NCBI GenBank assembly: GCA_039683575.1 | Contig: JBDKRC010000278.1 | Coordinates: 1-40,795, forward strand | Length of the DNA stretch: 40,795 nucleotides | Direction of reading: 5' to 3' | Source of the DNA: Armatimonadia bacterium | GTDB lineage: Bacteria; Armatimonadota; Zipacnadia; Zipacnadales; UBA11051 | Part shown: piece by piece, positions 12,208-40,795 of the stretch | How the letters are laid out: each line of letters begins with the position of its first letter | Position numbering within the stretch: position 1 is the stretch's first letter | The notes under the pieces: generated by a model | Databases searched by the model: none | The model's input: only the letters and a program-made list of their open reading frames with translations | What the model was told of the DNA's origin: nothing | Translations under genes and position numbers: made by a program

Positions 12208-12221
12208 CTTCTCTGTACAAG
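12208..12221 (-). promoter_or_regulatory. Degenerate second HutC-type operator (CTTGTACAGAGAAG on the - strand) at the regulator's own promoter
   Basis: 11/14 match to the perfect palindrome at 12293-12306. It overlaps the end of the leftward -10 element. Confidence 0.6.
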
Positions 12222-12248
12222 TAAACACTGCCGCTGAGAAGATGTCAA
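12220..12248 (-). promoter_or_regulatory. Leftward sigma70-type promoter for the gntR-GH106 unit
   Basis: TTGACA on the - strand (12248-12243), 17-nt spacer, then TTTACT (12225-12220). Confidence 0.55.
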
Positions 12249-12255
12249 CAAGCGT

Positions 12256-12284
12256 TTGACAAGCACAAAGGGCTGTGTTAGCAT
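12256..12284 (+). promoter_or_regulatory. Rightward sigma70-type promoter for the catabolic operon
   Basis: Perfect TTGACA (12256-12261), 17-nt spacer, extended -10 TGtTAGCAT (12276-12284). Confidence 0.75.
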
Positions 12285-12292
12285 CAGGCCAG

Positions 12293-12306
12293 CTTGTATA
12301 TACAAG
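12293..12306. promoter_or_regulatory. HutC/GntR-type operator palindrome CTTGTATATACAAG
   Basis: Perfect 14-bp AT-rich palindrome just downstream of the -10 box, next to a HutC-subfamily regulator. It matches the TTGTA-TA-x-ACAA pattern known for HutC-type sites. Confidence 0.85.
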
Positions 12307-12329
12307 TGACCAAGCTCCGGAGGTGCCCC

Positions 12330-13304: not shown

Positions 13305-13314
13305 GGTGACCGGT

Positions 13315-14649: not shown

Positions 14650-14659
14650 GAGGTCCATC

Positions 14660-15430: not shown

Positions 15431-15439
15431 GTGATAACC

Positions 15440-18354: not shown

Positions 18355-18384
18355 CGCCGGGGTGCTCCCTGCGGCCAGAAACAC

Positions 18385-23196: not shown

Positions 23197-23560
23197 AGAA
23201 AGCCTCCTGAGTACCGTGGCGGTTGGAAACTGTGCCTCCCGGAAGCCCGCAGGGTCCCGAAGCTAGCCTGCAGAGGCTGCAGAGCCCTCAGACTTCAGTT
23301 ACAGAGTCTGCCACCGTGCTGTTGACTTCTACCTTTTCTCACGTCATCCTCCCCGGATACTCCTGCATCTCATGCTTTCACTGCGCAGCTACTTGAGCTA
23401 CTACCCCAGAATCCCAACTGCCAGGAGAGAGCGGCTGCGGAAGGGAAGCAGAAGCAGGGCGAGGAAGGAACAGCTCGAGGACGCCAGGCTGGAAAGCACC
23501 CTCTAGACGGTCGAAGAGCATACTGGATGGATTCTATGAATATGATGGAGGTGTCAGCAG

Positions 23561-24664
23561 ATGGGCGGCTCTCTTCAGGCTGAGCATGGGATCATCTGTC
23601 GTTTGCCGGGGGAGCGTTTGGGGTATTTCGGTTGGCCTACAGTAGCCCGCATGGACGATGGTATGCTGGTGGTGGCCAGTTCTGGGCTGCGCTCGGAGCA
23701 CGTGTGCCCCTGGGGCAAGACCGTCCTCAACACGAGTACTGATGACGGCCGCACCTGGTCACCGCCGCGGGTGATACAGGATTCGCCGATTGACGATCGT
23801 GATGCCGGCGTGGTCAACCTCGGCGGCGATAGTCTGCTCACAACGTGGTTCCGCTCCGACACCCGCGAGTACGCCGCAGCCTCCTGGCTTCCCGAGGCCG
23901 AACGCGCAAGCTGGACCGAGGTCCTGAGCACCTGGACCGATGAGATGGTAGACGCGCTGCTCGGCTCGTGGGCCATGCGCAGTGAGGACAAAGGCGTCAC
24001 CTGGAGCGACCCCATTCGCGTTCCGGTGACGACACCACACGGCCCGATCCGGCTGCGGTCAGGCGATTTGCTTTATCTGGGCAAGCTGTACAGTTATTGG
24101 GAAGAGCGGGTGGAGGGCATGGTCGCCGCCTGCCTCAGCCGCGATCAGGGGCTGACGTGGGAGATTCTGGGCACTGTGCCGGTGCACCCGGACACAGATC
24201 CAGTCAACTACCATGAGCCTCATGTGCTGGAGCTGCCGTCCGGGCGCCTGCTGGGGGTAATTCGCATTCAGGACCATAGTGGCAAGACCCTCGACACTGC
24301 GGGCATACCCAACTTCAGCATGATGCTGACCGAATCGGACGACGGCGGCCGCACTTGGACCACCGCGCGCCCCCTCGGCTTCCACGGATCGCCGCCGCAC
24401 CTCCTGCGCCACTCCTCGGGCGTCATCATCCTTACCTACGGCTACCGGCTCGCTCCGTGGGGACAGCGCGTAGCCTTGAGCCACGACGACGGCGCCACAT
24501 GGGACCACGACTGGATCATCCGCGACGATGGCCCGGACAGTGACCTGGGGTACCCCTCGACTGTACAGATGGCGGACGGCTCGCTGTTCACCGTCTGCTA
24601 CCAGAAGGTGCCTGGGGACGCTAAGTGCTCCCTGCTATGGTCGCGTTGGGAACTGCCGGGCTAG
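23561..24664 (+). CDS. BNR/Asp-box sialidase-like protein, cytoplasmic (367 aa)
   Basis: GGAGGT RBS. YFGWPTVARM, five Asp boxes (STDDGRTWS, SEDKGVTWS, SRDQGLTWE, SDDGGRTWT, SHDDGATWD), HEPH, DLGYPS. Confidence 0.88.
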   Translation: MGGSLQAEHGIICRLPGERLGYFGWPTVARMDDGMLVVASSGLRSEHVCPWGKTVLNTSTDDGRTWSPPRVIQDSPIDDRDAGVVNLGGDSLLTTWFRSDTREYAAASWLPEAERASWTEVLSTWTDEMVDALLGSWAMRSEDKGVTWSDPIRVPVTTPHGPIRLRSGDLLYLGKLYSYWEERVEGMVAACLSRDQGLTWEILGTVPVHPDTDPVNYHEPHVLELPSGRLLGVIRIQDHSGKTLDTAGIPNFSMMLTESDDGGRTWTTARPLGFHGSPPHLLRHSSGVIILTYGYRLAPWGQRVALSHDDGATWDHDWIIRDDGPDSDLGYPSTVQMADGSLFTVCYQKVPGDAKCSLLWSRWELPG

Positions 24665-24687
24665 CCATTTAGTACGAGGAGACCAAG

Positions 24688-25923
24688 ATGAAGCTGCGAC
24701 CCGATCTGCTGGACGCTCGATCCCCCCGGGGTCTTCAGGTAATTCAGCTCACCACGGAGCCTGACGTGCCTGCTTCGCATATCTACATGGAGGCCCAGAT
24801 CTTCACCCCGGACTCCCAGCGGTTCGTCCTGCATCGCTCGGCTCATGCCCACGGGAGCTCCAAGGACGATCCTCTTCACCAGTATCTACTGTGCGACATC
24901 GCAAATGGCTGCGAGTTAACGCCACTGACCACCGAGACGGGGGCTACGGGCCCGTCAGTCTCGCCCGACGGGGAGTTCCTGTACTACTTCGTCAACGAGA
25001 CCGAGGTCAATGGGGGGCGATTGACGCTAAAGCGCGTGCGATTGGACGGCACGGACCGCCAGACGCTGATGGTCGTGGACGCGGCTCTGCCCGGTACAAA
25101 CTATCGCCCAAGCCGCATCTACCCGCTCTCCAGCATCTCGCCCGATGGTCGGCGGATTGCAATTTCATGCTTCCTGGGCGATGGACAGACTGAGAACGCG
25201 CCCTGGGGCCTCCTGGTCTTCGACCTCGCGGAGGCCAGCGTCAACTGCATTACCGAGGGGCAGAGCTGGTGCAACATGCACCCGCAATACAGCCGCTCAC
25301 AGGATCCCGAACAGGGCCATGACATCCTGATCCAGGAGAACCATGGCAATGTCACCGATGCCGAGGGAGTCGTCACCCTCCTGGTCGGAGGAGATGGCGC
25401 CGACATCCACGTCATCCGCGACGACGGCACGAACTTCCGCAACATGCCGTGGGGACGGGATGGCAACGAGTACTGCCAGGGGCACCAGTGCTGGCGGGGT
25501 CGCAGCGAGTGGGCGATTACAAGCACGGGCACCAAACAGCCGCCAGAGGCGCAACTCATCGAGGGCAGGGCAGTGCCACATGCGGGGCACGTCGGCCTCA
25601 ACTCGCCCGGCGCAGTGCGCAACGACCTGAGCCGGGAGTTCGACAACCCGCACTTCTACCACTTCGCCACTGACATTGCCGGGAAGCGGCTCATCACGGA
25701 CTGCGGGCCGCTCAACGAGCAGGCTACCATCTGGGCGGCGGAGCTAGGGAATGCCGGAATGGACCCGCTGACCGGCTGGACGTACCTGCTCAGTCCCCGC
25801 TCGACCTGCCTGAAGGGCGCCCACATCCATCCCTTCCTTTCGCCGGATGGGACAACGGGCTTCTTCAATTCGGACGAGTCGGGTCTGCTGCAGGCGTACA
25901 TGGTCACCGGTCTCGGCCGATGA
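24688..25923 (+). CDS. Oligogalacturonate lyase (PL22)-like beta-propeller protein (411 aa)
   Basis: GAGGAG RBS. QLT...HIYMEAQIFTPDSQRFV, HPQYS, GHQCW, and C-terminal HIHPFLSPDG..GFFNSDESG..QAY, typical of the Ogl-like family. No signal peptide. Confidence 0.7.
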   Translation: MKLRPDLLDARSPRGLQVIQLTTEPDVPASHIYMEAQIFTPDSQRFVLHRSAHAHGSSKDDPLHQYLLCDIANGCELTPLTTETGATGPSVSPDGEFLYYFVNETEVNGGRLTLKRVRLDGTDRQTLMVVDAALPGTNYRPSRIYPLSSISPDGRRIAISCFLGDGQTENAPWGLLVFDLAEASVNCITEGQSWCNMHPQYSRSQDPEQGHDILIQENHGNVTDAEGVVTLLVGGDGADIHVIRDDGTNFRNMPWGRDGNEYCQGHQCWRGRSEWAITSTGTKQPPEAQLIEGRAVPHAGHVGLNSPGAVRNDLSREFDNPHFYHFATDIAGKRLITDCGPLNEQATIWAAELGNAGMDPLTGWTYLLSPRSTCLKGAHIHPFLSPDGTTGFFNSDESGLLQAYMVTGLGR

Positions 25924-25959
25924 TCACCTGTCCCTCCCGAGAGGTCAAGCGCCACGTCT

Positions 25960-28900
25960 TTAGGAGGGGGGCCCGAGCAGCACACGGACTTGGTGGGTGG
26001 CACCATCGTCCACGCGCCGGATCCGTCCGTCTGGCAGAGGTTCACCGTCCAGCCAGACAGCAACCACACCGCGATTGACCCCCTCGGGGTTCTCCACCGC
26101 AATCTCATAGGTGGTGGAGAAGAAATGGTTAGTGACGGTGAAGCCGTGCCAGAGGCGCGGGATGCAGGGATCGACGAACAGGTCCCCGCCCTCGAGACGA
26201 AGCCCCAGCAGGTTCTCGATAGCCACTCGGTACATCCATGCGGCCGAGCCGGTGTACCAGGTCCAACCCCCACGTCCGGTGTGGGGCTCGGCGCCATAGA
26301 TGTCCGCGGCCACGGCATAGGGCTCCACGCGGTACAGGGCGACTTCCTCGGGCGTCCGGGCGTGGTTGATCGGGTTGATGAGCCCGAAATACTCGGCTGC
26401 GCGATCACCATCTCCGAGCAGGGCCGCGGCCTTCACGGTCCAGGTCGCGGCGTGGGTGTATTGGCCACCGTTCTCGCGCACACCGGGGACGTAGCCCTTG
26501 ATGTAGCCCGGCTCCAGCGGTGACTTCTCAAAGGGCGGCGTCAGCAGCAGCAGCAGGCGTTCGAGACGCTTGACTAGCTGCCGGTCAACAGCTTCCATAG
26601 CGTGGCGGGCCCGCTCGGGCGAGCCGGCTCCGGAGATGACCGCCCAGGATTGGCTGATGGCGTCAATACGGCATTCCTCGCCCTGAGCGGTGCCCAGGGG
26701 CACGCCCTCATCTGTATACGCGCGACGGTACCAGTCTCCGTCCCATGCCTCCTTCTCGATGGCAGCGACGAGTCTGGTAGCGGCGCCCTGGAAATGCAGG
26801 GCGCGCGCCTCCTCGCCGCGGGCCGCGCAGAGAGGCGCAAACCGGTTCAACGCGGTCGCGAGGAACCACGCCAGCCACACGCTCTCGCCCTTACCCCCTT
26901 CCCCCACGAGATTCATGCTGTCATTCCAGTCACCGGAGCCCATGAGCGGCAGGCCGTGTTCGCCCACGAGGGGCACCGCCCGCTCCAGGGCCTTCACAGC
27001 GTGCTGGTACAGCGTCTCGTGCAGTGGGGAGACCTCGGGGACATTGGCGCGGTCTCCCTCCCTGGGCTCAAGAGGCCTGTCCTGCAGGTAAGGCACGGGG
27101 TCGTCGAGCACCCCGCTGTCACCGGTGGAGGTGACATAGTCGGCGGTCACGTAGGGCAGCCATATGTAGTCATCGGAGCAGCGCGTGCGCACCCCGAGGC
27201 CGGTTGGCATATGCCACCAGTGCTGCACATCGCCTTCGAGGTACTGGCGCGATGCTGCCCGCAGAATCTGCTCGCGGGTCATGTAAGGCGCTGCATAGAC
27301 GAGCGCCATGACGTCCTGAAGCTGGTCACGGAAGCCGTAGGCGCCGCCGGACTGGTAGAAAGCGGCCCGGGCCCAAAGGCGGCTGGAGACGGCCTGGTAC
27401 AGCAGCCAGCGGTTGAGCAGCAGATTCATGGCCGGTTCGGGGGTCTCCACAGATACAGTGCCCAGCAGAGTATTCCAGAAATCGTGGACGCCGCGGAGCG
27501 CGTCCTCCGCCGCCCCGGGCGTGCGGAAGCGCTCGGCGAGGGCACGGGCCTCCTCGATGGACCCGGTCTCGCCGAGAACAAAGAGCAGTTCCGCGGTCTC
27601 CTGGGGCTCCAGGCTGAGCTTAACCTGGCACGCTCCGCAGGGATCGTAGCCGGCCCCCATGCGTCCCGACAGATCCACCCGGTACAGGGCGGCGGGGGCA
27701 GAGAGGCGGCCGTTGCGGCCGATGAATTCGGTGCGGTCGGAGGTTATGGTGCGGGACGGCACACCGACGACATCGAGAAAGGCGAGGCGGCTGGCGAAGG
27801 CCTCGTCGCGATAGGCATTAGTAGCTGTTTGAAGCCCGCTCTGCAGGTCTACGTCGGTGACAATGAACTGACGGCTGCGCTCGCGCTGCACCCCCAACAC
27901 CCATTCGGCATAGAACGTGGCTGATAGCGACCGCCGTCGCGGGCTGTCATTGCGAAGACGCAGGCGATAGATCTTCACCGGGGCGTCCACGGGGACGAAG
28001 ACGAGCAGTTCCTGGTCCAGGCCCTGGCTGTGGTGCTCGAACACGGAGTACCCCTGACCGTGCCGAATGACATAGGGCTCGGGCTCGCGGACGGGCAAGG
28101 GGGTTGGGGTCCAGAACTCCCCGGTCTCTTCGTCGCGCAGGTACACGATCTCCCCGGGGGGATCGCTGACGGGGTCATTGGCCCACGGAGTGAGACGGTT
28201 TTCCCGGCTGTTGAGCGACCACGTACCCCCGGAGCCGGCCTCTGAGACCAGGCAGCCGAAGCCGGCGTTGGCCAGCACGTTGATCCACGGAGCCGGGGTC
28301 TGCTGTTCGCCCTGCAGCGTAATCTGATACTCATGGGCATCCTGGGTGAACCCTCCCAGGCCGTTGAGGAAGAGCAGGTCCCGGGGCTGCAGGGGCGGGG
28401 AGGGATGGGCTTCCTTGAGCCGACGCCAGCGGGACCGCTCGGCCAGCGGCAGTTCGAACAGTCTCCTGTCCAGTTCCTCTCGCCGGGCGCCGGCAAAGGC
28501 CAGGGCAGGCACTCGTGTGAAGGTCTGCAGCAGCGTGTGCTCCTGCGCCAGGATGCGGGGCAGTGAGAGCTCGTAGAGCTTGGCCTCGAGTTGGCGCTTG
28601 AGCGAGCCGGCGGCGCCGTTGAGCGTCACGAGGGCCACGGCTTGCAGCAGCACGCGCTCGTCCTCACTCATGGCTTCGCTGCGGTGGCTGAAGACACCAC
28701 CCGGTTTGTTCGCCAGCGGCCGCTCGTCGCTACTCTCGATCTGTGCCCGGATCTGCTCTTGCAGGGACAGGGTGTACTCGGTGCGATGCTCGTTGACGAT
28801 GACCAGATCGGTGACAAGGCCCTTGAGCCGCATGAACTGGTGAGCCTGCAGGGCGTCGCGGACCAGGTCCAGTTCCTCCTCGCGGCTGACGCGGACGAGC

Positions 28901-31900
28901 AGTATGGGGTAGTCGCCAGAGATTCCCAAGCCCCACAGGCCCGGCTGGCCCTTGCGGTTCCTGGCGATCATGTCGCGGCGTGTCTGCAGCGAGAGACCAG
29001 GGTAGCACATGCGGGAGGTCAGTTGCTGGAGCAAGTGAGACTGATGGATGCTCAGGCGCAGATGCCGTAACTCCAACTGGCTGTGGGTCCAGGCGTGGAC
29101 GAAGGCATGCTCGGCGGCAATGACGGTGTGGTAGAGACTTATCAGTTGGAGGGCTTGCTCGCGCGTTTCGGCCAGCGCGGTGGTAAAGGACACCTGGATG
29201 GTCTCGCCGGGGGCGAGATGGACGGTGGTACAAATGCTCAGGATCGGGTCGAGCACCGCGCCGACGGTACCCGAAGGCTCCTGGCCGGGGTCGAGCATAA
29301 GCGGATTGGCGGGCGTCCGGCCACGGCCCACGAAGCGGCTGCGGTCGGTCTCATAGCGCGTGGGGACGGACGACTTGCTCTCGCACGCCACGACGTGAAT
29401 CAAGTATGGCGGCGACTCGTCGGGGGTGCGCCGCCGGCGCGAGCACAGCAGGGCGTCCCGGTCAGCGATGATCTCGGTTTCCACGAAGAGATTGCTGAAG
29501 GCGGGATGGTCCAGGTCGGCGGCGGCCGGGCCCAGCACGACCTCCATGTAACTGATTAGCTCCAACTCGCGCGGCACGCGTCCGTGGTTGGTCAAGGACA
29601 GGCGACGGATTTCGGCATTGTGCTCGGGCGAGACCACAACCTCGAGATGCGACTCGATGTCCTCGACCCGCCGAATGAACTCCACCCGCTCGGCGGCGAA
29701 GATCACGCTATCGCTCTCCGGCTGCGTCACCGGCTCGGCGTAGCTGCTGCCGATGGGCTGGTAGGAGGCCGACCAGACCTGCCCATTCGTCCGATCACGG
29801 AGGTAGAAGAACATGCCCCAGTGATCCTGCGTGAAGTCCTCGCGCCAGCGGGTGATGGCAGTCTTGCCGCAACGGCTGAAGCCTGCCCCCGTGGTGGTGA
29901 CGAGCACCGAGTAGGTGCCGTTGGAGAGCATGTGGCCGGTGGGCTCGATGGTGTGCGGGGTGGCGAAGTGGCGCATGATCGGCACTTCCACCGGCGTGAT
30001 CGCGCGATAGGCCCGCTTCTCCTCGGTCGGAGGGCGCTCGAACGAAGTGGCGCGGCGCGGCAGCTTTTCCTGGAGCAGGAGTTCGGTGGCCTGAACCATG
30101 CGCTCGGCGTGGAAGCGGGTCTGCATCACGTTGGCGTTGATCGCGTTGTGCATGGCGACCAGGCTCATTCCCTGGTGGTGGGCCATGAAGCTACGAACGA
30201 TCTCGAATCTCTGCCCTGGCTGCAGCCGCTCAGGCGTGTAGTCCACTGCTTCATAGAGGCCATAGCGCCCTTCCATGCCCTTGCTGACCAGCATGCGCAA
30301 GTTTCTCACAGCCAGCGCCGGATCCACGGCGAGGGCCAGCATGCTGGCATAGGGGGCCACTACCCTGTCGGAAGACAGAGCGCGGCGCAGACCGAGGCTG
30401 GGCACGCCGAAGGCGTAATACTGGTAGTTGAAGTGCAAGTCGCGGGCGCTGAACCCCGATTCGGAGACGCCCCAGGGCAGTCCCAGGTGTTGGCCATACT
30501 CCCGCTGCCGGTGGACGACCGTGGAATAGGTCTCATCCAGCAGCGTGTGCCCGAAGTTGCGCATCATGAGCAGCGGCATCAGGTACTCGAACATGGTGCC
30601 ATTCCACGACGCGAGGGCGCGGCGGCCACCCAACTGCCGCACGCCCCGGCCCAGGCGGAACCAGTGTTTCTCCGGCACGTCCCCCTTGGCGATGGCCACG
30701 AAACTGGCAATGCGCGCCTCGGAGGCCAGCAGATCATAGTATGAGGTGTCCAGTTGCCCGGCAGTGGCGTGATAGCCGATGAAGAAGAGGTGGCGCTGCG
30801 GATCGTAGAGGAACGAGAAGTCCGTGGCGGTTGCGAGAGCCTCCAGACGCGAGACCACGTCGCGGCAGCGCTGCTGGTACTCCTCGGCGGCGCCAGCGGC
30901 ACCGGCGTCCTGGGGATCCAGGCCCAGTTCCACCCTCAGGGTGTGGGCCGGCAAGTCTAGCAGTTCCAGTATCCCCTGCTTCACGACAAGCAGGCTGGCG
31001 ACCAGATTACCGCTGTCCGCGGTGGAAACGTACCGTGGCTCCAGCGGCGCCAGGGTCTCGGTGTCGTACCAGTTGTACAAATGACCCAAATGGCCCGGCA
31101 GGCCCTCCATCGTGGCCAGAGTGCGCTCAAGGCGTTCCAGCATCTCCAGGGGTGTGATGAAACCGAGGTCGTGGGCACTGAGGACGGAGAGCAGGTACAT
31201 TCCTATGTTCGTGGGTGAGGTGCGGTGAGCGATGGTGCCCGGGCCGCTCTGCTCGTCTGGCTCTGCCGTTTCCTGGTAGTTGTCCGGCGGCAAGTCGTGG
31301 TCGGCGGGCCCGACGCAGTCTGCGAAGTAGCGCCAGGTCTTCTCGGCCAAACGGATGAGGTCGCGGCGGTCTGCAGCGTTCAGGGCCGAGGTCCGCGGTC
31401 GCTCGGGTTGGCTGATCCACCAGGCGACCAGAGGTGAAACAATCCACAAGGTGGCGACGGGAGTGGCCCAGAGCAGGCGCTCCGGAGCCCACACGAGGGC
31501 CAGAAGCGCGAGCGCCGCGCCAAGGGCCGAGGCCGGCCACATCCCTGCCAGATAGCTCGCAGGCGTCCTGCCCTGCCGCCGTTCGACTGTGGCCGCTGTT
31601 TCCCACTCCAAGAGCAGCCGGTGGGTGACGCAAAGCCGCACCACAGTACGCACCGCGGCATCGCTCGCCAAGTACGCATGGTGCGCCAGTTGGACGAAGG
31701 TGAGCACTATCTGACGTACGATCAGCCCCAGGTCGGGCAGGAACCAGGACAGCGACCCTTTGAGGCAAAGACGCAGGCTGGCGACCGTATCGTCGGCCAG
31801 GTGGACGATAATGGGCAGGGCGATCCCGAGCACGGCCAGCGTCAGCCATAGTCCCGGGTTGCCCGGTAGCACCGTCAGGCCCAGGAACAGCAGCAGAAAC

Positions 31901-34386
31901 AGGGCCGGGGCCACCAGGCTGCGCCGCAGGTTGTCCAGCATCTTCCAGCGGGAAATGAGGCGCAGCGGATTGCGCACGCGCGCGCCGGAAGCATTGCGTA
32001 CCAGCGGCAGCAACCACGGCAGCAGTTGCCAGTCGCCGCGCACCCAGCGGTGCGTACGGCGCGCAGCGGCCAGGTAAGTGGCTGGAAAGCCGTCCACCAC
32101 CTCGACATCAGTCACGATGGCGGCGCGAACGTGGGTCCCCTCCAGCAAGTCGTGGCTCAGGACCGCATTCTCGGGGAACTGGCCCTCCAGCACCGCAGAG
32201 AAGGCATCGACGTCGTAGATGCCCTTGCCCATGTAGATGCTCTCGCGGAAAACGTCTTGGTAGACATCCGAAACGGCGGTGGGGTACGGATCCACTCCGC
32301 CCTGGCCGGCGAAGGTGCTGGCGAAGAGCGAGCGTCCGGAGATCTCAGCGGTGACCGACACCCGCGGCTGGAGCACGCCATAGCCCTCAACGACGCGGGT
32401 CTTCTGGTCGTTGAGGCGCGGGCAGTTCAGAGGGTGGGCGAGGGTGCCGACCAGCCGGTGGACGGCCTCGCGCGGCAACTGGGTGTCCTCGTCCAAAGTG
32501 ACCACGTAGCGGACGGGCGACAGTGCCCCCAGTTCCTCGGGACCATTCATGAAACTCGTGGCCTGGTCGCCGCGTAGCAGGCGGTTGAACTCCTCCAGCT
32601 TACCCCGCTTGCGTTCCCAGCCCATCCATTTGCCCTGTGCCGGGTTGAAGAGCCGCCGGCGGTGGAAGAGGTAGAAGACAGGTTGGTCGGCGGGATAGCG
32701 GGCGTTGAGGGCGGCCACCTCTTCATGTGCCCGAGCGAGCAGCGCCTCGTCGCCCGGCAGCGTCTCCTCGGCCGCGTCGAGGAAGTCAGAGAGCAGGGCG
32801 AAATGGATGTGCTGATCCTGGTTGGCGAGATAGCACACCTCCATCCGCTCGACCATCTCCACGAGGTGTTCCTTTGTGGACAGCATGGTCTGGATGACCA
32901 CCATAGTGTGTAGTTCAGGTGGCAGGCCGTCCTTGAGTTCAAGTTTGGGCAGCAGACGGGGGTGGCAGAAGCGCGTCAAGAAGCGGTTCAGCAACTGGAT
33001 TGCCATTTCGCTGGCGGGAATCAGGAGCAACAGCGGTAACAGCACCCAGGCCACCGCGGAGAGGCCACCGCTTTCCTGCGCGGCGAGGCACGTGACGAGC
33101 CCTGCGAGCGCCGCCGTACCGGTGAGGATGGCGCCGACGTACAAGGCGGAGGGGTGCCTGCTGAGGCACCGCGAGGCCCGCTGTCGCCAGGTCTGCCGCA
33201 GCCTGAGGCGCTCAGCCAGTTGGTCTTTGCCGCTGTCAAAGAGATAGTATCCGAGGTGCCGGCGCTTCGGAGGCACCTGCCCCTCGCGGGCGGCCTCACC
33301 GGCGAGTCGCACGGCGTGTTTGGCCACATGGGTCTCGACGATCTTCGAGGCCTTGGCCAAACGCTCGATTTCGTGGCGGTAACTGTCGCGCGTCGGGAAG
33401 TCCATGCGCGGGTAGGTGCCGTCCGGGTCGGTCCGGAGAATCTGCTCGATGCGGCTTACCTGCTCGAAAAACTCCGGCCAATCGTAGCCGCCGATGAAGC
33501 GCAAGGTCGCGATACAGTTGCTCACCGAGGTCACGTTGGCGGCTTCCTCCTGGTGAACGAGGCGCGTCACGTCGTCGATGTTCATGCCCTGGCGGCCGAG
33601 ACGCTCCTCGAGCCACTCAAGGAGGTCGGCGGTACACGGGCCCTGATCCATGAAACGTTGCAGAAGCTGGACGGCATGCGCCGGCTCCAGCTTATCCAGG
33701 CGACGGTCATGGCGGACCGAGATGTGCGCCGCACCTGGTTGGCACTTTTGCATGTCGCCCAGTACCCGGTCGGCCCAGGCGTCGGCCTCCGACCGAAGGC
33801 GCTGGTTGCGGACGATCTCGCTACTGAGGCGCTGCAGGTTGAGAATGATGGCCATCTGGCACATGATCGGCAGTGCCCACACTTCGCCGCTGGTCAAGAG
33901 CGTTTCGCGCTGGTAGGCGTTGACGAAGCTGGTCAGACGCTCCTCATTGAGTTGCGCGTTGGTGTGAGCAATCAGTTCGATGGCAATGGCATAGACGCGG
34001 GGATAGCCGGCCAACGGCTCGCTGACCAGTTTCGGTAGCGCGCGGTAGAAGCCCTGGGGCAGGTTATGGCGGATCTGCTGGGCCTGTTCCTGAATCAGGT
34101 ACGAGTTGTCCAGGAGCCACTCGGCGGAGCGGATCAGAGGGGCGCTGGCCTGGGCCCAGGAGGCGATGGCCCGCAGCGATTTGTGCAAAACCTTGTAGTC
34201 CTGCTCGAAGGAGGCCAGCAGCCGCGACGCTCTTTGCGGCGTGGAGGACACCACATGGAGGATCGCCACGGCCCTGGCGCATTTGTCTAGCTCTTCAGGC
34301 CCCAGAAGCACGTCACGTATCGGCGCCTTGGCGGGGAGGCCTTCGCGCAGTCTCAGGTGGCGCTCTAGCAAACCGGATAGGCTCAT
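25960..34386 (-). CDS. ndvB: Cyclic beta-1,2-glucan synthase (Cgs/NdvB/ChvB: GT84, glucoamylase-like transglycosylase and GH94 phosphorylase domains), 2808 aa
   Basis: EWLLDN, WMGWERKRGKL, TLDEDT, GKGIYDVDAF, LSHDLLEG, HRWVRGDWQLLPW, transmembrane segments, LPPDNYQE, RTSPTNIG, YDLLASEAR, PWGVSES, MAHHQGMSL, APWINVLAN, FYQSGGAYGFRDQLQD, GDWND, GVRENGGQYTHAA, GRGGWTWYTGSAAW. Confidence 0.93.
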   Translation of the reverse strand: MSLSGLLERHLRLREGLPAKAPIRDVLLGPEELDKCARAVAILHVVSSTPQRASRLLASFEQDYKVLHKSLRAIASWAQASAPLIRSAEWLLDNSYLIQEQAQQIRHNLPQGFYRALPKLVSEPLAGYPRVYAIAIELIAHTNAQLNEERLTSFVNAYQRETLLTSGEVWALPIMCQMAIILNLQRLSSEIVRNQRLRSEADAWADRVLGDMQKCQPGAAHISVRHDRRLDKLEPAHAVQLLQRFMDQGPCTADLLEWLEERLGRQGMNIDDVTRLVHQEEAANVTSVSNCIATLRFIGGYDWPEFFEQVSRIEQILRTDPDGTYPRMDFPTRDSYRHEIERLAKASKIVETHVAKHAVRLAGEAAREGQVPPKRRHLGYYLFDSGKDQLAERLRLRQTWRQRASRCLSRHPSALYVGAILTGTAALAGLVTCLAAQESGGLSAVAWVLLPLLLLIPASEMAIQLLNRFLTRFCHPRLLPKLELKDGLPPELHTMVVIQTMLSTKEHLVEMVERMEVCYLANQDQHIHFALLSDFLDAAEETLPGDEALLARAHEEVAALNARYPADQPVFYLFHRRRLFNPAQGKWMGWERKRGKLEEFNRLLRGDQATSFMNGPEELGALSPVRYVVTLDEDTQLPREAVHRLVGTLAHPLNCPRLNDQKTRVVEGYGVLQPRVSVTAEISGRSLFASTFAGQGGVDPYPTAVSDVYQDVFRESIYMGKGIYDVDAFSAVLEGQFPENAVLSHDLLEGTHVRAAIVTDVEVVDGFPATYLAAARRTHRWVRGDWQLLPWLLPLVRNASGARVRNPLRLISRWKMLDNLRRSLVAPALFLLLFLGLTVLPGNPGLWLTLAVLGIALPIIVHLADDTVASLRLCLKGSLSWFLPDLGLIVRQIVLTFVQLAHHAYLASDAAVRTVVRLCVTHRLLLEWETAATVERRQGRTPASYLAGMWPASALGAALALLALVWAPERLLWATPVATLWIVSPLVAWWISQPERPRTSALNAADRRDLIRLAEKTWRYFADCVGPADHDLPPDNYQETAEPDEQSGPGTIAHRTSPTNIGMYLLSVLSAHDLGFITPLEMLERLERTLATMEGLPGHLGHLYNWYDTETLAPLEPRYVSTADSGNLVASLLVVKQGILELLDLPAHTLRVELGLDPQDAGAAGAAEEYQQRCRDVVSRLEALATATDFSFLYDPQRHLFFIGYHATAGQLDTSYYDLLASEARIASFVAIAKGDVPEKHWFRLGRGVRQLGGRRALASWNGTMFEYLMPLLMMRNFGHTLLDETYSTVVHRQREYGQHLGLPWGVSESGFSARDLHFNYQYYAFGVPSLGLRRALSSDRVVAPYASMLALAVDPALAVRNLRMLVSKGMEGRYGLYEAVDYTPERLQPGQRFEIVRSFMAHHQGMSLVAMHNAINANVMQTRFHAERMVQATELLLQEKLPRRATSFERPPTEEKRAYRAITPVEVPIMRHFATPHTIEPTGHMLSNGTYSVLVTTTGAGFSRCGKTAITRWREDFTQDHWGMFFYLRDRTNGQVWSASYQPIGSSYAEPVTQPESDSVIFAAERVEFIRRVEDIESHLEVVVSPEHNAEIRRLSLTNHGRVPRELELISYMEVVLGPAAADLDHPAFSNLFVETEIIADRDALLCSRRRRTPDESPPYLIHVVACESKSSVPTRYETDRSRFVGRGRTPANPLMLDPGQEPSGTVGAVLDPILSICTTVHLAPGETIQVSFTTALAETREQALQLISLYHTVIAAEHAFVHAWTHSQLELRHLRLSIHQSHLLQQLTSRMCYPGLSLQTRRDMIARNRKGQPGLWGLGISGDYPILLVRVSREEELDLVRDALQAHQFMRLKGLVTDLVIVNEHRTEYTLSLQEQIRAQIESSDERPLANKPGGVFSHRSEAMSEDERVLLQAVALVTLNGAAGSLKRQLEAKLYELSLPRILAQEHTLLQTFTRVPALAFAGARREELDRRLFELPLAERSRWRRLKEAHPSPPLQPRDLLFLNGLGGFTQDAHEYQITLQGEQQTPAPWINVLANAGFGCLVSEAGSGGTWSLNSRENRLTPWANDPVSDPPGEIVYLRDEETGEFWTPTPLPVREPEPYVIRHGQGYSVFEHHSQGLDQELLVFVPVDAPVKIYRLRLRNDSPRRRSLSATFYAEWVLGVQRERSRQFIVTDVDLQSGLQTATNAYRDEAFASRLAFLDVVGVPSRTITSDRTEFIGRNGRLSAPAALYRVDLSGRMGAGYDPCGACQVKLSLEPQETAELLFVLGETGSIEEARALAERFRTPGAAEDALRGVHDFWNTLLGTVSVETPEPAMNLLLNRWLLYQAVSSRLWARAAFYQSGGAYGFRDQLQDVMALVYAAPYMTREQILRAASRQYLEGDVQHWWHMPTGLGVRTRCSDDYIWLPYVTADYVTSTGDSGVLDDPVPYLQDRPLEPREGDRANVPEVSPLHETLYQHAVKALERAVPLVGEHGLPLMGSGDWNDSMNLVGEGGKGESVWLAWFLATALNRFAPLCAARGEEARALHFQGAATRLVAAIEKEAWDGDWYRRAYTDEGVPLGTAQGEECRIDAISQSWAVISGAGSPERARHAMEAVDRQLVKRLERLLLLLTPPFEKSPLEPGYIKGYVPGVRENGGQYTHAATWTVKAAALLGDGDRAAEYFGLINPINHARTPEEVALYRVEPYAVAADIYGAEPHTGRGGWTWYTGSAAWMYRVAIENLLGLRLEGGDLFVDPCIPRLWHGFTVTNHFFSTTYEIAVENPEGVNRGVVAVWLDGEPLPDGRIRRVDDGATHQVRVLLGPPS

Positions 34387-34513
34387 GCTGCCTCTCTATT
34401 CTTGATGTGGTCCCGTTAGCGGGCATACGGAAACGACCGTGGCGCGCGCCGCAGTCGCCCTCCGGGGGCCGGGAGGCTTATAGCCCGCGCGTCACCTGGG
34501 CGCCACGGGGTCC

Positions 34514-35596
34514 TCAGAACATCCGAATCTGAGCCATGTCTCCGAGAATCACGTTCAGCGGGCCAAGCATCGGCTCGCCGCCCACTATTTTGACGCTTTC
34601 GCCCAGAACTGATGACGCAAGTCCGGCTGCAAGGTGCGATATCTGGCAGTTGTGCTGGATCACGCAGTCTTCAAGGAGGCTGTCGCTGATGGCACAGCCG
34701 TTGCCCAACATAACGTAGGGTTCCAGCGTGGAATTCTCGATCACACAATTCTGCCCGATCAGGCAAGGGCCAATGATCCGGCTGTTCACGATGCGCGTCC
34801 CCTTGCCGATGTGGACTACGCCGGAGATAACGCTATCGGCGCTGACCCTGCCCTGCATCTGACCAGCGATCAGGTCCAGGTACTTGCGGTTCGCCCGCAA
34901 GAGGGCCTTCGGCTCACCGGCGTCCTCCCAGAAGCCACTCAGCACACGGGCGGTCACGCTCGCTTGCTGTTCGACCAGGTACTGGATCGCGTCCGTGACC
35001 TCCAACTCACCACGCGCCGAGGGTTTTATGTTAGCGATGGCGTCGAAGATGGCTGAAGTGAAGGCGTAGACGCCGACGACCGCCAGGTTGCTCGGTGGGT
35101 CAGCGGGTTTTTCCACCAGCCGCAGCACGCGCTGCTGGGCGTCGAGCACGACCACACCATACCGGCGCGGGTCCTCGACCTCCTTGAGCAGCAGCGACGC
35201 CTGTGCGCTGCCGGCGCGAAAATCGGCAACGAATTCCGCAATGCCGTCTTCTAGCAGATTGTCGCCCAGATAGACTATGAACGGGTCAGCGCCGACGAAC
35301 TCGCGCGTTTGACCAATCGCGTGAGCGAGGCCGAGCGGCTGCGCCTGGGTGATGTAGGTGGCAACTATCCCCCACGGCGACCCGTCTCCCACATAGCGCT
35401 GGACGGCCTCTGGATGATGCCCGACTACGAGTGCGACCTCGTTCAGCCCCGCGCTGGCCAGCGCCTCCAGCACGTGCCCGAGTATCGGCTTGCCTGCCAC
35501 GGGCAGCAGGTGCTTGGGCTTGGAGAACGTCAACGGTCGCAGCCGGGTGCCTTCCCCCGCGCAAAGTACGACTGCCTTCAGGTTGTCAGTTGACAT
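34514..35596 (-). CDS. rmlA: Glucose-1-phosphate thymidylyltransferase, long form (RmlA-like, with C-terminal left-handed beta-helix)
   Basis: GGAGG RBS. AGEGTRLRPLT..KPKHLLPVAGKP, QAQPLGLAHA, YLGDN, LVEKP, KPSARGELEVTDAI, WEDAG, and a hexapeptide-like tail. Nucleotide specificity is uncertain. Confidence 0.85.
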   Translation of the reverse strand: MSTDNLKAVVLCAGEGTRLRPLTFSKPKHLLPVAGKPILGHVLEALASAGLNEVALVVGHHPEAVQRYVGDGSPWGIVATYITQAQPLGLAHAIGQTREFVGADPFIVYLGDNLLEDGIAEFVADFRAGSAQASLLLKEVEDPRRYGVVVLDAQQRVLRLVEKPADPPSNLAVVGVYAFTSAIFDAIANIKPSARGELEVTDAIQYLVEQQASVTARVLSGFWEDAGEPKALLRANRKYLDLIAGQMQGRVSADSVISGVVHIGKGTRIVNSRIIGPCLIGQNCVIENSTLEPYVMLGNGCAISDSLLEDCVIQHNCQISHLAAGLASSVLGESVKIVGGEPMLGPLNVILGDMAQIRMF

Positions 35597-35835
35597 GGTG
35601 AAACCTCCGCGTGCGGCAACCTCGCGATCGGCTCTGGTTTCCGGAGCACAGCTGCTTTGCCACTACATGATGGTGGAATCATAGCGCGATAAGCGCGAGC
35701 CCGCCTCCACCCTTCGGGCGGGCTCTCCCTCTATCTTTAGGCAGACCCGGTTGGAGCACCGTGAGAGACGGAGGGGGGCCGCATTTGGACTGCTTTCCCC
35801 ACTTGACCTGCCTCCCTGAAACGGGGTTAGCCGGT

Positions 35836-36114
35836 GTGTTCGACTGGAATCTGCTCTTCCTGCGGACTCTCCAGGAGGCCGGCAGGTTCACGGACTTGGG
35901 TCGATGCTTGGTGCGATTGCTGGTGGACATCGGCGGCTTCTCCGTGCTGAGTCCGTCCGCGCAGCTTCAGTGCGTCATCAGCCTGGACGGTTGCGTGAGG
36001 GTGGCCGCCCGCCGGACGCACCCCTTCGTCAAGCCGGGGGCCTCAAGCTGCGACAGGGCGGGCGCACACCGACCGGGTAGACAAGGGACATCAGCCCCCG
36101 CTGGCGAACCATGA
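35836..36114 (+). pseudogene. Possible remnant of a class III nucleotidyl cyclase domain
   Basis: The short ORF contains LLVDIGGFSVLSPSAQLQCVISLDGCVRVAA, resembling the first Asp strand and helix of adenylate/guanylate cyclases. It has no in-frame GD motif. Confidence 0.3.
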
Positions 36115-36167
36115 GGCTGGTGGTATGAACTCCCGCGTGCCAGACAGGCCAGAAAGGGAACCTGCTG

Positions 36168-39100
36168 ATGTATATGAAGATGATGCGGATCGCGCTGTTT
36201 GCTGCCCTCGCCGGGGCAGGATGGCAGCCAGCCAGCGCCGCCCCCCTCAAGCCACCCGTCAATCTCGTGGCCAATCCTTCCTTTGAGCAAGCTGCCGATG
36301 GCAAGGAGCAGGCCGCACGTGGCTGGAGTCTTTACCAGTGCGGATACACCCGCACCCGCGAACGAAGCTATGCGCCCGATATCGGAGGGCCCTGGAGTTG
36401 CCGCATCAGTGGCACCGGCCAGGCCGATGAGAAGGGCATGGGGGGCACCAACACCGCCGTAGCGGACCTGCCGGCCAGGGGCACCTTCGCCGCCACTAAC
36501 AGCATCTACGTCGACTCCTGCAAGCAGGGCAGCATCTATGGCGCGTACGTGACCTGTGGCTATGACGATGGCACCAGCAAGACGTACAGCTTTACGCTCA
36601 GCGACGCGCAGATCAAGGCGAATCTGGGTAAGTGGAAGACCTATCGCCTGAGCTTTACCAGCGATGCTGACAAGAAGCTGAAGACCATCACGTACTGGTG
36701 CCTGGTGTGGTCGAAGGGCGAGCAGAAGTTCATCGGGACGGTCTATTTCGACGAGGTGGAACTGCGGCAGGTACCGACCGATGGGCAAGCCGAGGCCGCG
36801 GTCCCTTTTGCATTGGCCCCGTACACTCAAACGCCTCCGCGCATTGATGGGGCGAGCGATGACGAGTGCTGGCAGCGCTCGTCCGACCTGTCGCCGTTTC
36901 TGCTCAGCGGGGGCGTGGAGGCTGCCGCGGAACAGACGAGGGCGCGGCTGGCGTATGACAAGGACAATCTCTACCTGTTCCTGGAGTGTTACGAGGCGGC
37001 GCTGAATCCGGTGCTGCAAAAGCGCGCTTCCTTCAAGGCCGATCAGACTGAGCATGACTCCAATGTCTTCCGTGACGATGCGGTGGAGTTGTTCCTGCAG
37101 CCCTCGCAAGCGGAGGGCACGTACTACCACCTCGCGGTCAACAGCCGCGGCGCGCTCTATGACGCCCGCTGCGAGGCCAGCGGCGTCAACGACAAGAGCT
37201 GGGATTCGGGCGCAAAGGCGGCCGGGAAGGTTGGGGAGCGCTCCTGGACGGTGGAGGTGGCTATTCCCCGCGAGCAGTTGGGCGCGATGGAGTTCACCGC
37301 GACGGAGGGCTGGCGTCTCAACCTTTGCCGCAGCGAGAAGCCGTCGGGGGAGAATTCCTGTTGGTCGCCCACGGGGGGGCCGTTCCACACCCCCTCGCGC
37401 TTTGGACTGGTCGCCTTCGGGCCGCCAGCCATTAGCGGCGGCGCGGTGGACCTCGGGCCCTTGCGCAAGGGCAACAACCGCCTGCAAGTGACCGTCGGCA
37501 ACCCCGCCGCTGAAGCTTGTACTGTCACCGTCACTACTTCGGTCGCCCAGGGCAACGGGGCGAGCGAGGTCGGACGGGCTTCCGTGCGACTGGCCCCCGG
37601 GAAGACTGAGACGGTGGACGTTGAGTATGACGCGCCGTCCGGCGATGGGGCGTTGCGGTATGAGATCGCCCAAGACGGGCGGATCCTGCTGCTCTCTCCG
37701 AGCTATCCGCTGCAGTCAGACAACCCCTTCATCGCCTGGGTGAACGTGCTGGACAAGCCCAGCAGCCATGTCATCACGAGCTTCAGCGTGGCGCAGGGAG
37801 AGACGCTGGCCGTGCCGCTGGTGCTGCTGGCGGGAATTGAGGAGGAGCAGTTCAAGGAGGCGACGGTGACGCTGGAAGTGCCCGGCTTTCTGCGCCTGGT
37901 AAGCCCGCTGAGTGGGCCGCGGCGCTGTCCGACGCCGCTGCGTGTGAAGGAAGAGGCGATTGAGCGCGAGGGGGAGCCGTACCGCCGCGTCACCATGGAA
38001 TTCGGCCCCAAGAGCGTGACCTTTGCCCGGGCGCGCGAGGAAAGGATGTATGTCGAGAACCCGCTCCTATTCCGGGCGGAGTATGTCGGACAACCCCAAC
38101 AGACCAGTTTTCCCCTTACGTACGATGTCTATCTCAACGGCCAGAGCAGAGCCAGCGGGAGCGTGCCACTGTCCCTTCTGCCGCCACTGTCCCGCAAATC
38201 GCCACGCGAGGTGGTCGTCTGCAACTGGCCGTGCGGCAGCACTTACTTCAACGCCTTCCTCAACCGTCTGAGCGAGACGGAGCAGGAGGCTATTCTCGAT
38301 TCCTGGATCCACACGGGCTTCAACCTGTACACACACTTTGGTCTGGCGAAACAGCGGGGGCTGAAGACCGCGCAGGGCCTGCCGGCCACCCTGCAGGACC
38401 TCTGCGGCAGCGCGACCGGCCTCAGCGACTACTTGCGCGCGAATCCGCAGTACCAGGATGCCACTCTCGACGGCAAGCCGCTGCCGACCTCGATTTCGCC
38501 GGCGCACCTGCTGGAGGAAAGCTGCCCCGCGCGGGCGATGATAAAGGAATACGTGGGCAAGCAGGCCCGGCAGCAGCCGGTGCTGAGCTGGGACTACGAG
38601 GTGCCGGTGGCCTATCCGCAGTCTATCGGCTTTGGTGCCCACAACCTCGCCGCCTTCCGCAAGTTCGCCAAGATACCAGATAGCGTGGAACTGACCCCGG
38701 CGGTCGCGGTGCGCGACTATCGGGCTCAGTGGATAGACTTCCGCTGCCGGCAAAACGCCGGGGTCGTAAAGCTGCTGCAAGAGGGCATCAAGGCCGCCAA
38801 TCCGGCCTGCATGTTCTTCGTCTACAGCGGCTACCAGGGCGAGCACACCCGAGAGACCTACGGAATCAACTGGGAATACGTGGCGCCTCACCTCGATCAG
38901 GGCTGGTGCGGCTACGGCCGGCCCGTGGAGCAGACGCGGGACACGCTCAGGGCACTGGGGGGCAAGCCGCTGGTGAACGGAGAACTGGTCTGGCTTGGGG
39001 ATGGCAACTCTTATCCGCTCGATGACACCGAGGCTAACCTCATGCGCCGCCTGACCGACTGCGCCGGTGGTGTCATGGTCTACTATGACTGGTTCGTGGA

Positions 39101-40505
39101 CGGACGTTTCTACAGCGGGCTCTCCCGCACCGCGGCGGTCGCTGCAGACTTCGAACCCTTCTTCCTCAAGGGCCGGCGCGATGACGCCCTGGCCACGGTT
39201 GAAGCCGGTGGCGAGGGCAATGTCGTGGTCTATTCCCTCGGCGCCGAGCGGCTGGTCTTCCTCTTCGGCACCGCAGCAAGCCCACAGCAGTTCCGCGTGC
39301 AGTTGAAGGACCTCCCCGCCGGGGCCGTGGCGCTGGACTACTGGACAAAGAAGCCACTGCCCCTCTCCCCCGCCCTGGTGGCTGACGTCCCGGCGCACGG
39401 GGTCAAGGTCATCCATGTGCGCCCGTCCGCCAACATGGCAGCGCCGGTGGCTCCACGGCTGGTCAGCCCGGTGGATGAGACGGTGTCAGACCGCCGGCCG
39501 CTCCTGGTATGGGATCAGGCGGGCGGAGGTGACTGCCGCTACCGCGTGGAGGTCTCGCCGGATCGCGCTTTCGCACCGGCCTCTACCATCGCCGCTGATC
39601 TTGCGGCCAATACCCATGTCATCACCGAGCCGCTGGACGACAACGGCGCCTACTTCTGGCGGGTACGGGCCGTGGATGCCCACAATGGCCAACAAAGCGC
39701 GTGGTCTCCCGTAGGGCAGTTCAGGGTTGGTGTGCTCGCGGTTGCGGTGCAGCCGTCTGTTTTCTCACCCAACGGCGACGGAGTCTATGACACTGTGTCC
39801 CTGCAAGCCGAATTGCGCACCGAGGCGCCGTGGACAGTCACCGTTTCCGACGCCGCCGGGGGCAAGGTCAGGGCCTTCTCGGGCAGAAGCACGCAACCAG
39901 CGGCCATCTGGGATGGCAAGAATGCCGCAGGCAAGCCGGCACCCGATGGCAACTACAAGTTGCTTCTGGAGGTCAAGGGCAAGCAGGTCGCCGCCGAGAC
40001 GGTCGAACTCAACCCGCGCTTCGGCCTGCCCAACCCCGAACTTGAGCGCTGGTGCTTCTGGCGCCCGCAGGCGCTTGAGGGCGGCGCCACCGAGCAGGAC
40101 TACCATGTGTTCGCCGCCAAACTGCCTTACTCGTTGAAGCTGACCGGCGACGGGCCCGAGGCGAAGGCTTACTGGTCGAACTACCGTAGCGGCACTGAGA
40201 TCCCGATCACGGCGGGGAAGACATACACCTACAGCGGCCTGGTGAAGACCGCTCTGGCCGCCGACGCACAGGCCACTATTGGCCTTCACTTCTTCACCAG
40301 GGACGACCGCTGGGCGGCCATTCCGGGCCTCGGGGCGGAGTGGGAGGGCATTGTCGCCGCTGCCACAGGCAAGCAGGACTGGAAGCGCCTGACGGTCTCA
40401 TGCCAGGCGCCCGAGAATGCCGCAAAGGCCGTGCTCTTCTTCTCGATCAAGGGTAAGGGCAACGCCTGGCTGGGCTCGGCGGAGTTTGGCGAGACCCCGC
40501 AGTAG
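36168..40505 (+). CDS. Large secreted modular carbohydrate-binding/active protein (CBM4/9-like, CBM9, putative TIM barrel, FN3/Ig-like, FlgD-Ig, CBM), 1445 aa
   Basis: Signal peptide RIALFAALAGAGWQPASA. NLVANPSFE...VYFDEV. CBM9-like PPRIDG..DDECW, YDKDNLYL, DDAVELFL, WTVEVAIP, WRLNLCR. Central WDYE and WIDFRC segment. APRLVSP...RPLLVW...YFWRVRAVD. FSPNGDGVYD...IWDGKNAAGKPAPDGNY (FlgD-Ig). Confidence 0.85.
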   Translation: MYMKMMRIALFAALAGAGWQPASAAPLKPPVNLVANPSFEQAADGKEQAARGWSLYQCGYTRTRERSYAPDIGGPWSCRISGTGQADEKGMGGTNTAVADLPARGTFAATNSIYVDSCKQGSIYGAYVTCGYDDGTSKTYSFTLSDAQIKANLGKWKTYRLSFTSDADKKLKTITYWCLVWSKGEQKFIGTVYFDEVELRQVPTDGQAEAAVPFALAPYTQTPPRIDGASDDECWQRSSDLSPFLLSGGVEAAAEQTRARLAYDKDNLYLFLECYEAALNPVLQKRASFKADQTEHDSNVFRDDAVELFLQPSQAEGTYYHLAVNSRGALYDARCEASGVNDKSWDSGAKAAGKVGERSWTVEVAIPREQLGAMEFTATEGWRLNLCRSEKPSGENSCWSPTGGPFHTPSRFGLVAFGPPAISGGAVDLGPLRKGNNRLQVTVGNPAAEACTVTVTTSVAQGNGASEVGRASVRLAPGKTETVDVEYDAPSGDGALRYEIAQDGRILLLSPSYPLQSDNPFIAWVNVLDKPSSHVITSFSVAQGETLAVPLVLLAGIEEEQFKEATVTLEVPGFLRLVSPLSGPRRCPTPLRVKEEAIEREGEPYRRVTMEFGPKSVTFARAREERMYVENPLLFRAEYVGQPQQTSFPLTYDVYLNGQSRASGSVPLSLLPPLSRKSPREVVVCNWPCGSTYFNAFLNRLSETEQEAILDSWIHTGFNLYTHFGLAKQRGLKTAQGLPATLQDLCGSATGLSDYLRANPQYQDATLDGKPLPTSISPAHLLEESCPARAMIKEYVGKQARQQPVLSWDYEVPVAYPQSIGFGAHNLAAFRKFAKIPDSVELTPAVAVRDYRAQWIDFRCRQNAGVVKLLQEGIKAANPACMFFVYSGYQGEHTRETYGINWEYVAPHLDQGWCGYGRPVEQTRDTLRALGGKPLVNGELVWLGDGNSYPLDDTEANLMRRLTDCAGGVMVYYDWFVDGRFYSGLSRTAAVAADFEPFFLKGRRDDALATVEAGGEGNVVVYSLGAERLVFLFGTAASPQQFRVQLKDLPAGAVALDYWTKKPLPLSPALVADVPAHGVKVIHVRPSANMAAPVAPRLVSPVDETVSDRRPLLVWDQAGGGDCRYRVEVSPDRAFAPASTIAADLAANTHVITEPLDDNGAYFWRVRAVDAHNGQQSAWSPVGQFRVGVLAVAVQPSVFSPNGDGVYDTVSLQAELRTEAPWTVTVSDAAGGKVRAFSGRSTQPAAIWDGKNAAGKPAPDGNYKLLLEVKGKQVAAETVELNPRFGLPNPELERWCFWRPQALEGGATEQDYHVFAAKLPYSLKLTGDGPEAKAYWSNYRSGTEIPITAGKTYTYSGLVKTALAADAQATIGLHFFTRDDRWAAIPGLGAEWEGIVAAATGKQDWKRLTVSCQAPENAAKAVLFFSIKGKGNAWLGSAEFGETPQ

Positions 40506-40626
40506 CCTCATATCGCGGGAGACGGCTCTGAGACGGCGGGCGCGGCAGCAGGAATGCTGGCAGAGACCGTGGAACATGATCTATGTTTGTCATCCCATAT
40601 GTGAGTGAAGAACAAGGAGGCTCGAC

Positions 40627-40683
40627 ATGACACGTAGAGGTTTCACGCTGATTGAGCTCTTGGTCGTGATTGCGATCATGTAG
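40627..40683 (+). pseudogene. Type IV prepilin-type N-terminal cleavage/methylation leader, truncated after 18 codons (MTRRGFTLIELLVVIAIM*)
   Basis: Perfect AAGGAGG RBS at 40614-40620, ATG at 40627, canonical G|FTLIELLVVIAI motif, TAG at 40681-40683. The usual IAILAAILFPV continuation is absent in all three frames. Too short for the ORF track. Confidence 0.85.
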
Positions 40684-40795
40684 CCGCTGAACAACCGGCC
40701 CTTCTCGTGCGTTGAAGTTCAGCTTTGACTTTCGGAATCTGCTTTTTTGCCGGATTTTGGCTCCAGAAGCCCTCTACAGCCCGTTTCGCGCCCCT
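40680..40795. mobile_element. Candidate end of an inserted element (IS or integrative element) interrupting the prepilin gene
   Basis: Abrupt loss of pilin coding after ...GCGATCAT. The junction GTAGCCGCTGAACAA resembles the GC(T/C)GCTGAAAAA-type ends I recall for IS5/IS1182-like elements. The sequence is more AT-rich and runs off the window. No transposase is visible. Confidence 0.35.

Follow-up and report, generated by a model that had tools for sequence, protein, structure and literature searches.

A DUF1559-type pilin-like gene broken within its leader near the end of an Armatimonadia contig

Near the right-hand end of a 40795-nt contig from an Armatimonadia MAG, the whole of which was analysed and is referred to here as the window, lies the genuine 5' end of a gene for a small (~200-270 aa) DUF1559/H-X9-DG pilin-like protein, equipped with its own ribosome binding site (RBS) and cut short after 17 codons. 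The arrangement has the appearance of a commonplace gene disruption or of an assembly edge. The likeliest single explanation, to which we would give a probability of roughly 0.45, is that a repeated element has inserted in the pilin-like gene and that the contig ends about one k-mer into that element. The original prediction for this locus had been more ambitious: it held that the leader DNA is a recurring target of a site-specific element, or else a fixed leader that is joined to alternative pilin bodies, and that either arrangement might serve as an on/off switch. As set out below, we regard that proposal as very improbable.

The gene that precedes the truncated reading frame (positions 36168 to 40505, plus strand, ending in TAG) encodes a 1445-aa secreted sugar-binding protein with CBM9, Ig-like, FlgD-Ig and CBM4_9 domains. 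The only contig on record for this protein measures 40795 nt; the window is therefore the whole contig and position 40795 a real contig end, so that the end that had been remarked upon, 112 nt after the stop codon of the truncated frame, is a true one. The contig is rich in glycan-active genes (DUF4838, GH16, GH106-like, BNR, a 2808-aa GH94 protein and the CBM9/Ig protein itself), and no transposase, integrase or recombinase family was found among its 58 open reading frames (ORFs) of at least 150 aa. Two tandem paralogous genes on the minus strand (266-3145 and 3132-6146, encoding 959 and 1004 aa, both DUF4838) overlap by 14 nt and contain DNA segments that are ~80% identical at a spacing of ~3.0 kb (repeat families D1 and D2). 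The 2808-aa protein (25960-34386, minus strand) combines two GH94 supersandwich stretches with GH94 catalytic and glucoamylase-like domains, and we take it to resemble the giant enzymes of the cyclic beta-1,2-glucan synthase type. Among the glycoside hydrolase genes there are two further minus-strand ORFs (20593-23196, 867 aa, and 6292-7026, 244 aa) whose N-termini resemble signal peptides and to which Pfam assigns no family at E <= 1e-5.

Between the stop of the 1445-aa gene and the start of the truncated frame lie 121 nt of spacer and 5' untranslated region (40506-40626, plus strand, GC 0.57), in which the AAGGAGG motif that had been read as an RBS is indeed present at 40614-40620, followed by a 6-nt spacer and an ATG at 40627-40629. 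The ORF itself (40627-40683, plus strand) consists of 18 codons and a TAG at 40681-40683, and its product, MTRRGFTLIELLVVIAIM, is as originally described; reading past the TAG yields PLNNRPFSCVEVQL and then a TGA, a run of 14 residues unrelated to the family discussed below. A consensus scan found no sigma-70-like promoter and no terminator in the spacer and 5' untranslated region or in the DNA that follows the ORF.

Short as it is, this 'stub' is recognized by PF07963, by TIGR02532 and by a hidden Markov model (HMM) of its own family. The translation of 40609-40680 scores 32.8 bits against PF07963 (N_methyl; curated cut-off 21.2), over profile positions 3-19 of 27, and 31.9 bits against TIGR02532 (curated cut-off 16.3), over positions 1-16 of 24. 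The features of a prepilin-type N-terminal domain are all there, in the form MTRR-G-F-T-L-I-E: a short basic leader, glycine at -1, phenylalanine at +1 and glutamate at +5, so that the cleavage/methylation motif (G5, F6, E10) is accompanied by 12 residues of the hydrophobic helix. Both profile matches, however, end at the last residue before the TAG, 8 profile positions short, and the complete hydrophobic N-terminal helix that the full PF07963 and TIGR02532 profiles describe is not reached. Nor does the window contain a DUF1559 body, which would occupy ~180-250 residues after the leader. Because it falls short both of full length and of a DUF1559 body, in spite of its N-terminal domain scores, the stub is best classed as a fragment of a DUF1559 family member and not as a member.

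The family was identified by a search in which the broken gene was read through, with an X at both stops, against longer proteins only (99-2000 aa). Five proteins of 199-233 aa were returned, from sources other than the sister MAGs considered below; all five begin with the same 17 residues as the stub and carry PF07963 together with PF07596 (DUF1559). A profile built from these five finds at least 7999 members at E <= 1e-20 (of 8000 candidates scored), and among the members listed (at least 120) those for which the source supplies a name are called DUF1559 or prepilin-type/H-X9-DG proteins, many of them derived from MAGs of Armatimonadota. The 121 members that were retrieved are 193-271 aa long (median 217), and 19 of them share the first 17 residues of the stub, none of these 19 coming from NCBI. 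The motif GFTLIELLVVIAI is present in 115 of the 121, every one of which continues with IAILAAILF, while the remaining 6 lack it within their first 40 residues; 22 leader residues are common to all 115 motif-bearing members, an invariance that is in part a selection effect, since members were retrieved through shared words. On sequence grounds, then, the family of the stub is that of the small DUF1559/H-X9-DG pilin-like proteins of Armatimonadota.

The stub resembles the DUF1559/H-X9-DG proteins known from Armatimonadota and the PVC phyla (which carry PF07963 and PF07596) in its 17-residue start and its G-F-T-L-I-E motif, and the stub gene resembles theirs in having a strong RBS and glycan-degrading enzyme genes nearby; it differs in that it covers only 18 of 215 family positions, with the DUF1559 body and its H-X9-DG motif absent from the whole contig. 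The expectation that prepilin/DUF1559 genes are multicopy holds for the family, which is very large; the window itself contains one leader. According to passages in the literature, the largest gene families of Planctomycetes include the DUF1559 proteins (PMC4807772), and Planctopirus limnophila has 68 DUF1559 paralogues (PMC10632474). Three of the retrieved family proteins (P0012, P0026 and P0088) share a longest contig of 25451 nt (ENA), and two others (P0022 and P0086) share one of 6190 nt, figures which suggest that several DUF1559 paralogues may lie on one contig in related organisms.

The point at which similarity to pilin-like genes is lost can be placed at 40677-40680, both from DNA matches and from the protein, in which a methionine, followed by the stop, occupies position 18, a position that is isoleucine in 115 of 115 motif-bearing family members. 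In a blastn search of plasmid sequences, all 12 matches covered the leader only (conserved leader DNA amounts to just ~43 nt) and ended at 40677-40679, so that the break lies within 40677-40680; the junction that had been placed between GCGATCAT and the G that follows it is thereby upheld. An 8-nt perfect inverted repeat, ACATGATC / GATCATGT, occurs at 40574-40581 and 40674-40681, its second arm spanning the breakpoint; it was considered as a possible signal and set aside, being near chance level in 236 nt (an estimated ~0.4 expected).

The rest of the gene is not elsewhere on the contig. The family HMM (121 members, 215 positions), applied with all filters off and E <= 10 to a six-frame translation of the whole window in 1400 pieces, has its sole match at 40627-40680, corresponding to positions 1-18; the remaining 197 of 215 positions are absent from every frame and strand of the window. 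A degenerate search that allowed up to 3 mismatches gave 0 matches to the next motif of the family in the window, and no second leader motif was found there, the one leader being that of the stub. Taken together, the HMM and motif negatives indicate that the missing part of the gene is not on the contig in any frame or orientation. Two simple accounts can thus be dismissed, as they had been at the outset. A frameshift would have left the gene body in another frame of the window, and no frame resumes pilin sequence; amber read-through would give a product that has no family match, and TAG is moreover an ordinary stop on this contig. It ends 8 of the 19 genes of the window, and the TAG of the upstream gene falls at the same point as the ends of its orthologues, on which grounds a recoding of TAG is rejected.

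What follows the stub is a tail of 112 nt (40684-40795) that reaches the contig end and has no match in protein, RNA, plasmid, phage or genome searches. It had been described as more AT-rich, which is correct as a figure (GC 0.554 against 0.641 for the window) but not distinctive: a GC as low as this is found in 4% of 112-nt windows, and values between 0.495 and 0.70 occur in native spacers of the contig. The low-GC stretch, furthermore, begins at 40501, upstream of the stub. Because it starts there and lies within the native-spacer range, the composition of the tail is no mark of foreign origin. In codon terms, the open frames of the tail have a third-position GC (GC3) of 0.49-0.61, as against 0.77-0.86 in 19 genes, which argues that the tail is not native coding sequence. 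The tail probably either is non-coding or represents the opening stretch of an inserted element.

Searches for a second copy or a relative of the tail were negative throughout. A repeat search found no other copy in the 40.8-kb contig and no junction repeat longer than 8 nt in the window; blastn-short against the rest of the window and against the two nearest orthologous loci described below gave chance matches of 10-11 nt only; and an exact 28-mer had 0 matches among representatives of 185,579 species, a collection that excludes the source genome and its close relatives. Rfam gave 0 matches on the tail at E <= 1, no phage match was found, and plasmid DNA matches cover the leader only. Folding of the tail is no better than that of shuffled sequences (z-scores +0.37 and +0.66), and the window as a whole has 0 tRNAs and 0 tandem repeats.

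Just one frame is open across the entire tail, namely a minus-strand frame of 39 aa whose stop is at 40676-40678, and an open frame of 39 codons is unsurprising, being expected ~0.15 times per frame in random sequence by our own arithmetic. As a candidate transposase C-terminus it was rejected, the best Pfam or NCBIfam match having E = 0.22 and 11.4 bits (cut-off 27). A phmmer search of 1.84 billion representatives with this 39-aa query, which is short enough to miss a family member of ~50% identity, returned 2 matches at E ~1e-4, both to internally repetitive proteins; the ESM Atlas had no usable match, and tblastn against plasmids gave only E values of 4 to 7. The plus-strand frames of 35 aa and 28 aa were likewise without a plasmid match and without a Pfam or NCBIfam match, respectively.

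Comparison with relatives was possible through the upstream 1445-aa protein. Only two orthologous loci were found, one in a Candidatus Zipacnadia MAG of the Armatimonadota (73% identity; locus L001) and one in an Armatimonadia MAG (71%; locus L002), and neither has a pilin leader. When L001 (positions 6153-18749) and L002 were set against window positions 23000-40795, the 1445-aa gene was all that was held in common, with no shared flanking gene on either side; these loci therefore say nothing about the ancestral state after the leader.

Closer to the window are five partial copies of the same protein (P0004-P0008) in sister Armatimonadia MAGs, at 97-99% identity. They span residues 1-122, 5-329, 379-1445, 759-1445 and 1-1424, and are thus cut at five different positions, which suggests that the population is strain-diverse and that the locus of the 1445-aa gene assembles badly in it. 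Three of the copies are broken inside the gene, each at a different place, and because sister contigs break at many places within this neighbouring gene, contig breaks in the population need no repeats. The other two copies, MEN6304566.1 (on a contig of 3641 nt) and MEN6548550.1 (on one of 10682 nt), include the natural C-terminus, and their contigs continue past the upstream stop for ~1.58 kb and ~7.5 kb, where the window has 290 nt. These contigs, at 98% protein identity, pass the locus at which the window ends, so that the break is specific to this assembly or strain, as is expected of a polymorphic insertion. A sister-MAG allele of the pilin-like gene was not among the members of the family listed (at least 120), none of which comes from the 3641-nt or the 10682-nt sister contig.

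Against this background, the insertion of a repeated element would account for the observations as follows. An insertion sequence (IS) or similar repeated element would have landed in the pilin-like gene in the strain that dominates the assembly; the assembler would have followed the repeat for roughly the length of a k-mer (112-119 nt), at which point the graph would branch and the contig would end. In its present state the gene would be dead, its 18-residue product (13 residues after cleavage) being unable to form a pilin, and the position of the break inside the conserved leader would be a chance landing site and no proof of targeting. We infer that the tail represents one end of a repeated mobile element. 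When a de Bruijn assembler finishes at a k of ~99-141, a contig that runs into a repeat retains roughly k bases of it at its end, and many DDE transposons end in TG. The abrupt loss of homology, together with a contig end 112-119 nt after the break, supports such an insertion, as does the non-native character of the tail in codon terms; weaker support comes from the TG that directly follows the last pilin-like base. That SPAdes contigs have overlapping sequences at their ends, and that repeat contigs have several connections, is described in part of PMC5481147.

The comparison with IS-interrupted genes at the ends of short-read contigs is close in its outline (abrupt homology loss, unrelated DNA of about k-mer size, then the contig end), but the window has no demonstrable transposase, inverted repeat, target duplication or second copy. 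Only one end of the putative insertion is on the contig, and inverted repeats and a target duplication need both. The reading is further weakened by the lack of transposase similarity in any tail frame and of any plasmid or phage match, by the absence of the tail 28-mer from the species representatives and of a second copy from the contig, and by a tail GC that lies within the native-spacer range in a population whose fragmentation needs no repeats.

Several of the same observations can be read differently. The last ~115 bases might be a chimeric tip, or the assembler might have followed the wrong branch where the sequence varies between strains or is repeated, the gene being intact in the organism itself. 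We consider this unlikely, although the break does fall within 120 nt of a contig end, in a population that is strain-diverse and hard to assemble (all five sister copies are partial, with five break positions), and the tail matches nothing. The leaders of paralogues are in addition nearly identical (the 22 shared residues, with the bias of retrieval through shared words), so that graph tangles are to be expected exactly at the leader. A wrong branch taken through a common leader, however, should lead into another pilin paralogue, and the tail has no pilin-like frame; the ~43 nt of conserved leader DNA are also exceeded by the final k values in usual use, and the remainder of the 40.8-kb contig is coherent. 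A similarly doubtful alternative is that a deletion or rearrangement has taken away the pilin body and brought the leader up against native non-coding DNA unrelated to it, leaving a single-copy remnant, and that the contig end has nothing to do with it. The GC of the tail fits native spacers, and the low-GC stretch starts before the stub; the tail is without coding signal or mobile-element signature; the two nearest species do not preserve the gene order on either side of the upstream gene, from which it follows that the region does rearrange; and contig breaks free of repeats are common in the sister MAGs. What such a remnant would require is a coincidence, in that the break happens to lie ~115 nt before the contig end, and neither a partner sequence nor a deletion scar can be shown. 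Hardly credible, finally, is a functional 18-codon ORF that acts as a leader peptide or as a decoy substrate of the prepilin peptidase. Its attractions are a perfect RBS at ideal spacing and an intact cleavage motif, but all 121 retrieved relatives have 193-271 aa, the search among proteins of 99-2000 aa returned full-length DUF1559 proteins only, and the ORF ends at the exact point of the homology break, as is typical of truncation.

Recurrent targeting of the leader, or its use as a fixed expression site, is an addition to plain insertion that the evidence does not support. In its favour, the break lies inside the invariant stretch of a multicopy family (at least 7999 members at the threshold given above; the 68 paralogues of Planctopirus limnophila in the passage cited from PMC10632474), and there are precedents for both recombination within pilin genes and site-specific insertion of the IS110/IS492 type. 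Recurrence, on the other hand, is not demonstrable from a single junction, and an insertion into the first 57 nt of a gene of ~650 nt is no rare event, with a chance of ~1 in 11 by our own arithmetic from the median length of the family members. The window is also without a second leader, an inverted crossover copy, a pilin cassette, a recombinase or a transposase. More specifically, the proposition that an Armatimonadota element or recombinase acts at one fixed nucleotide (40677-40680) of DUF1559 leaders, and in doing so switches glycan-associated pilin-like genes, is in our estimation a shade less probable still than the broader proposal.

The known systems with which the locus might be compared make the same point. 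Inversion by Piv in the pilin genes of Moraxella and the Rci shufflon of plasmid R64 both involve recombination inside a pilin gene whose constant N-terminal part stays at the expression site, and both employ inverted copies of a crossover site, alternative pilin bodies and an adjacent recombinase gene, with the leader being joined to another pilin body in either orientation. The would-be likeness to the window is the constant N-terminal part retained at an expression site. Of the parts of a switching system, the 40.8 kb upstream contain one leader, no pilin body and no recombinase among the 58 ORFs; inverted crossover copies are absent as well, and the leader is joined to non-pilin DNA where the inversion systems join it to a pilin body. 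Elements of the IS110/IS492/IS1111 type, which insert into a defined repeated sequence, would likewise produce one fixed junction inside a conserved multicopy sequence, but the 112-nt tail gave no sign of an IS110-type protein or RNA, and recurrence is without evidence. Narrow literature searches (prepilin with insertion sequence and Armatimonadetes, DUF1559, Zipacnadia) found no account of an element that targets pilin leaders in the material they returned. In the main text of two papers on Armatimonadota, the words pilin, pili, pilus and transposase have 0 occurrences (PMC10290634), as do pilin, prepilin, pseudopilin and methylation (PMC11535203).

A truncated gene ~115 bases from the edge of a MAG contig is a common sight. 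As it stands, the observation is that, among the many small DUF1559 pilin-like genes of an Armatimonadia bacterium, one is broken, whether by nature or by the assembler; its by-products are the assignment of the stub to a family and the recognition of two public sister contigs (those encoding MEN6304566.1 and MEN6548550.1). If the same junction were to recur at other leaders, it would imply an element or recombinase whose target is the DNA that a large paralogous family conserves most strongly, and with it a route to the switching of the poorly understood DUF1559 pilin-like proteins.
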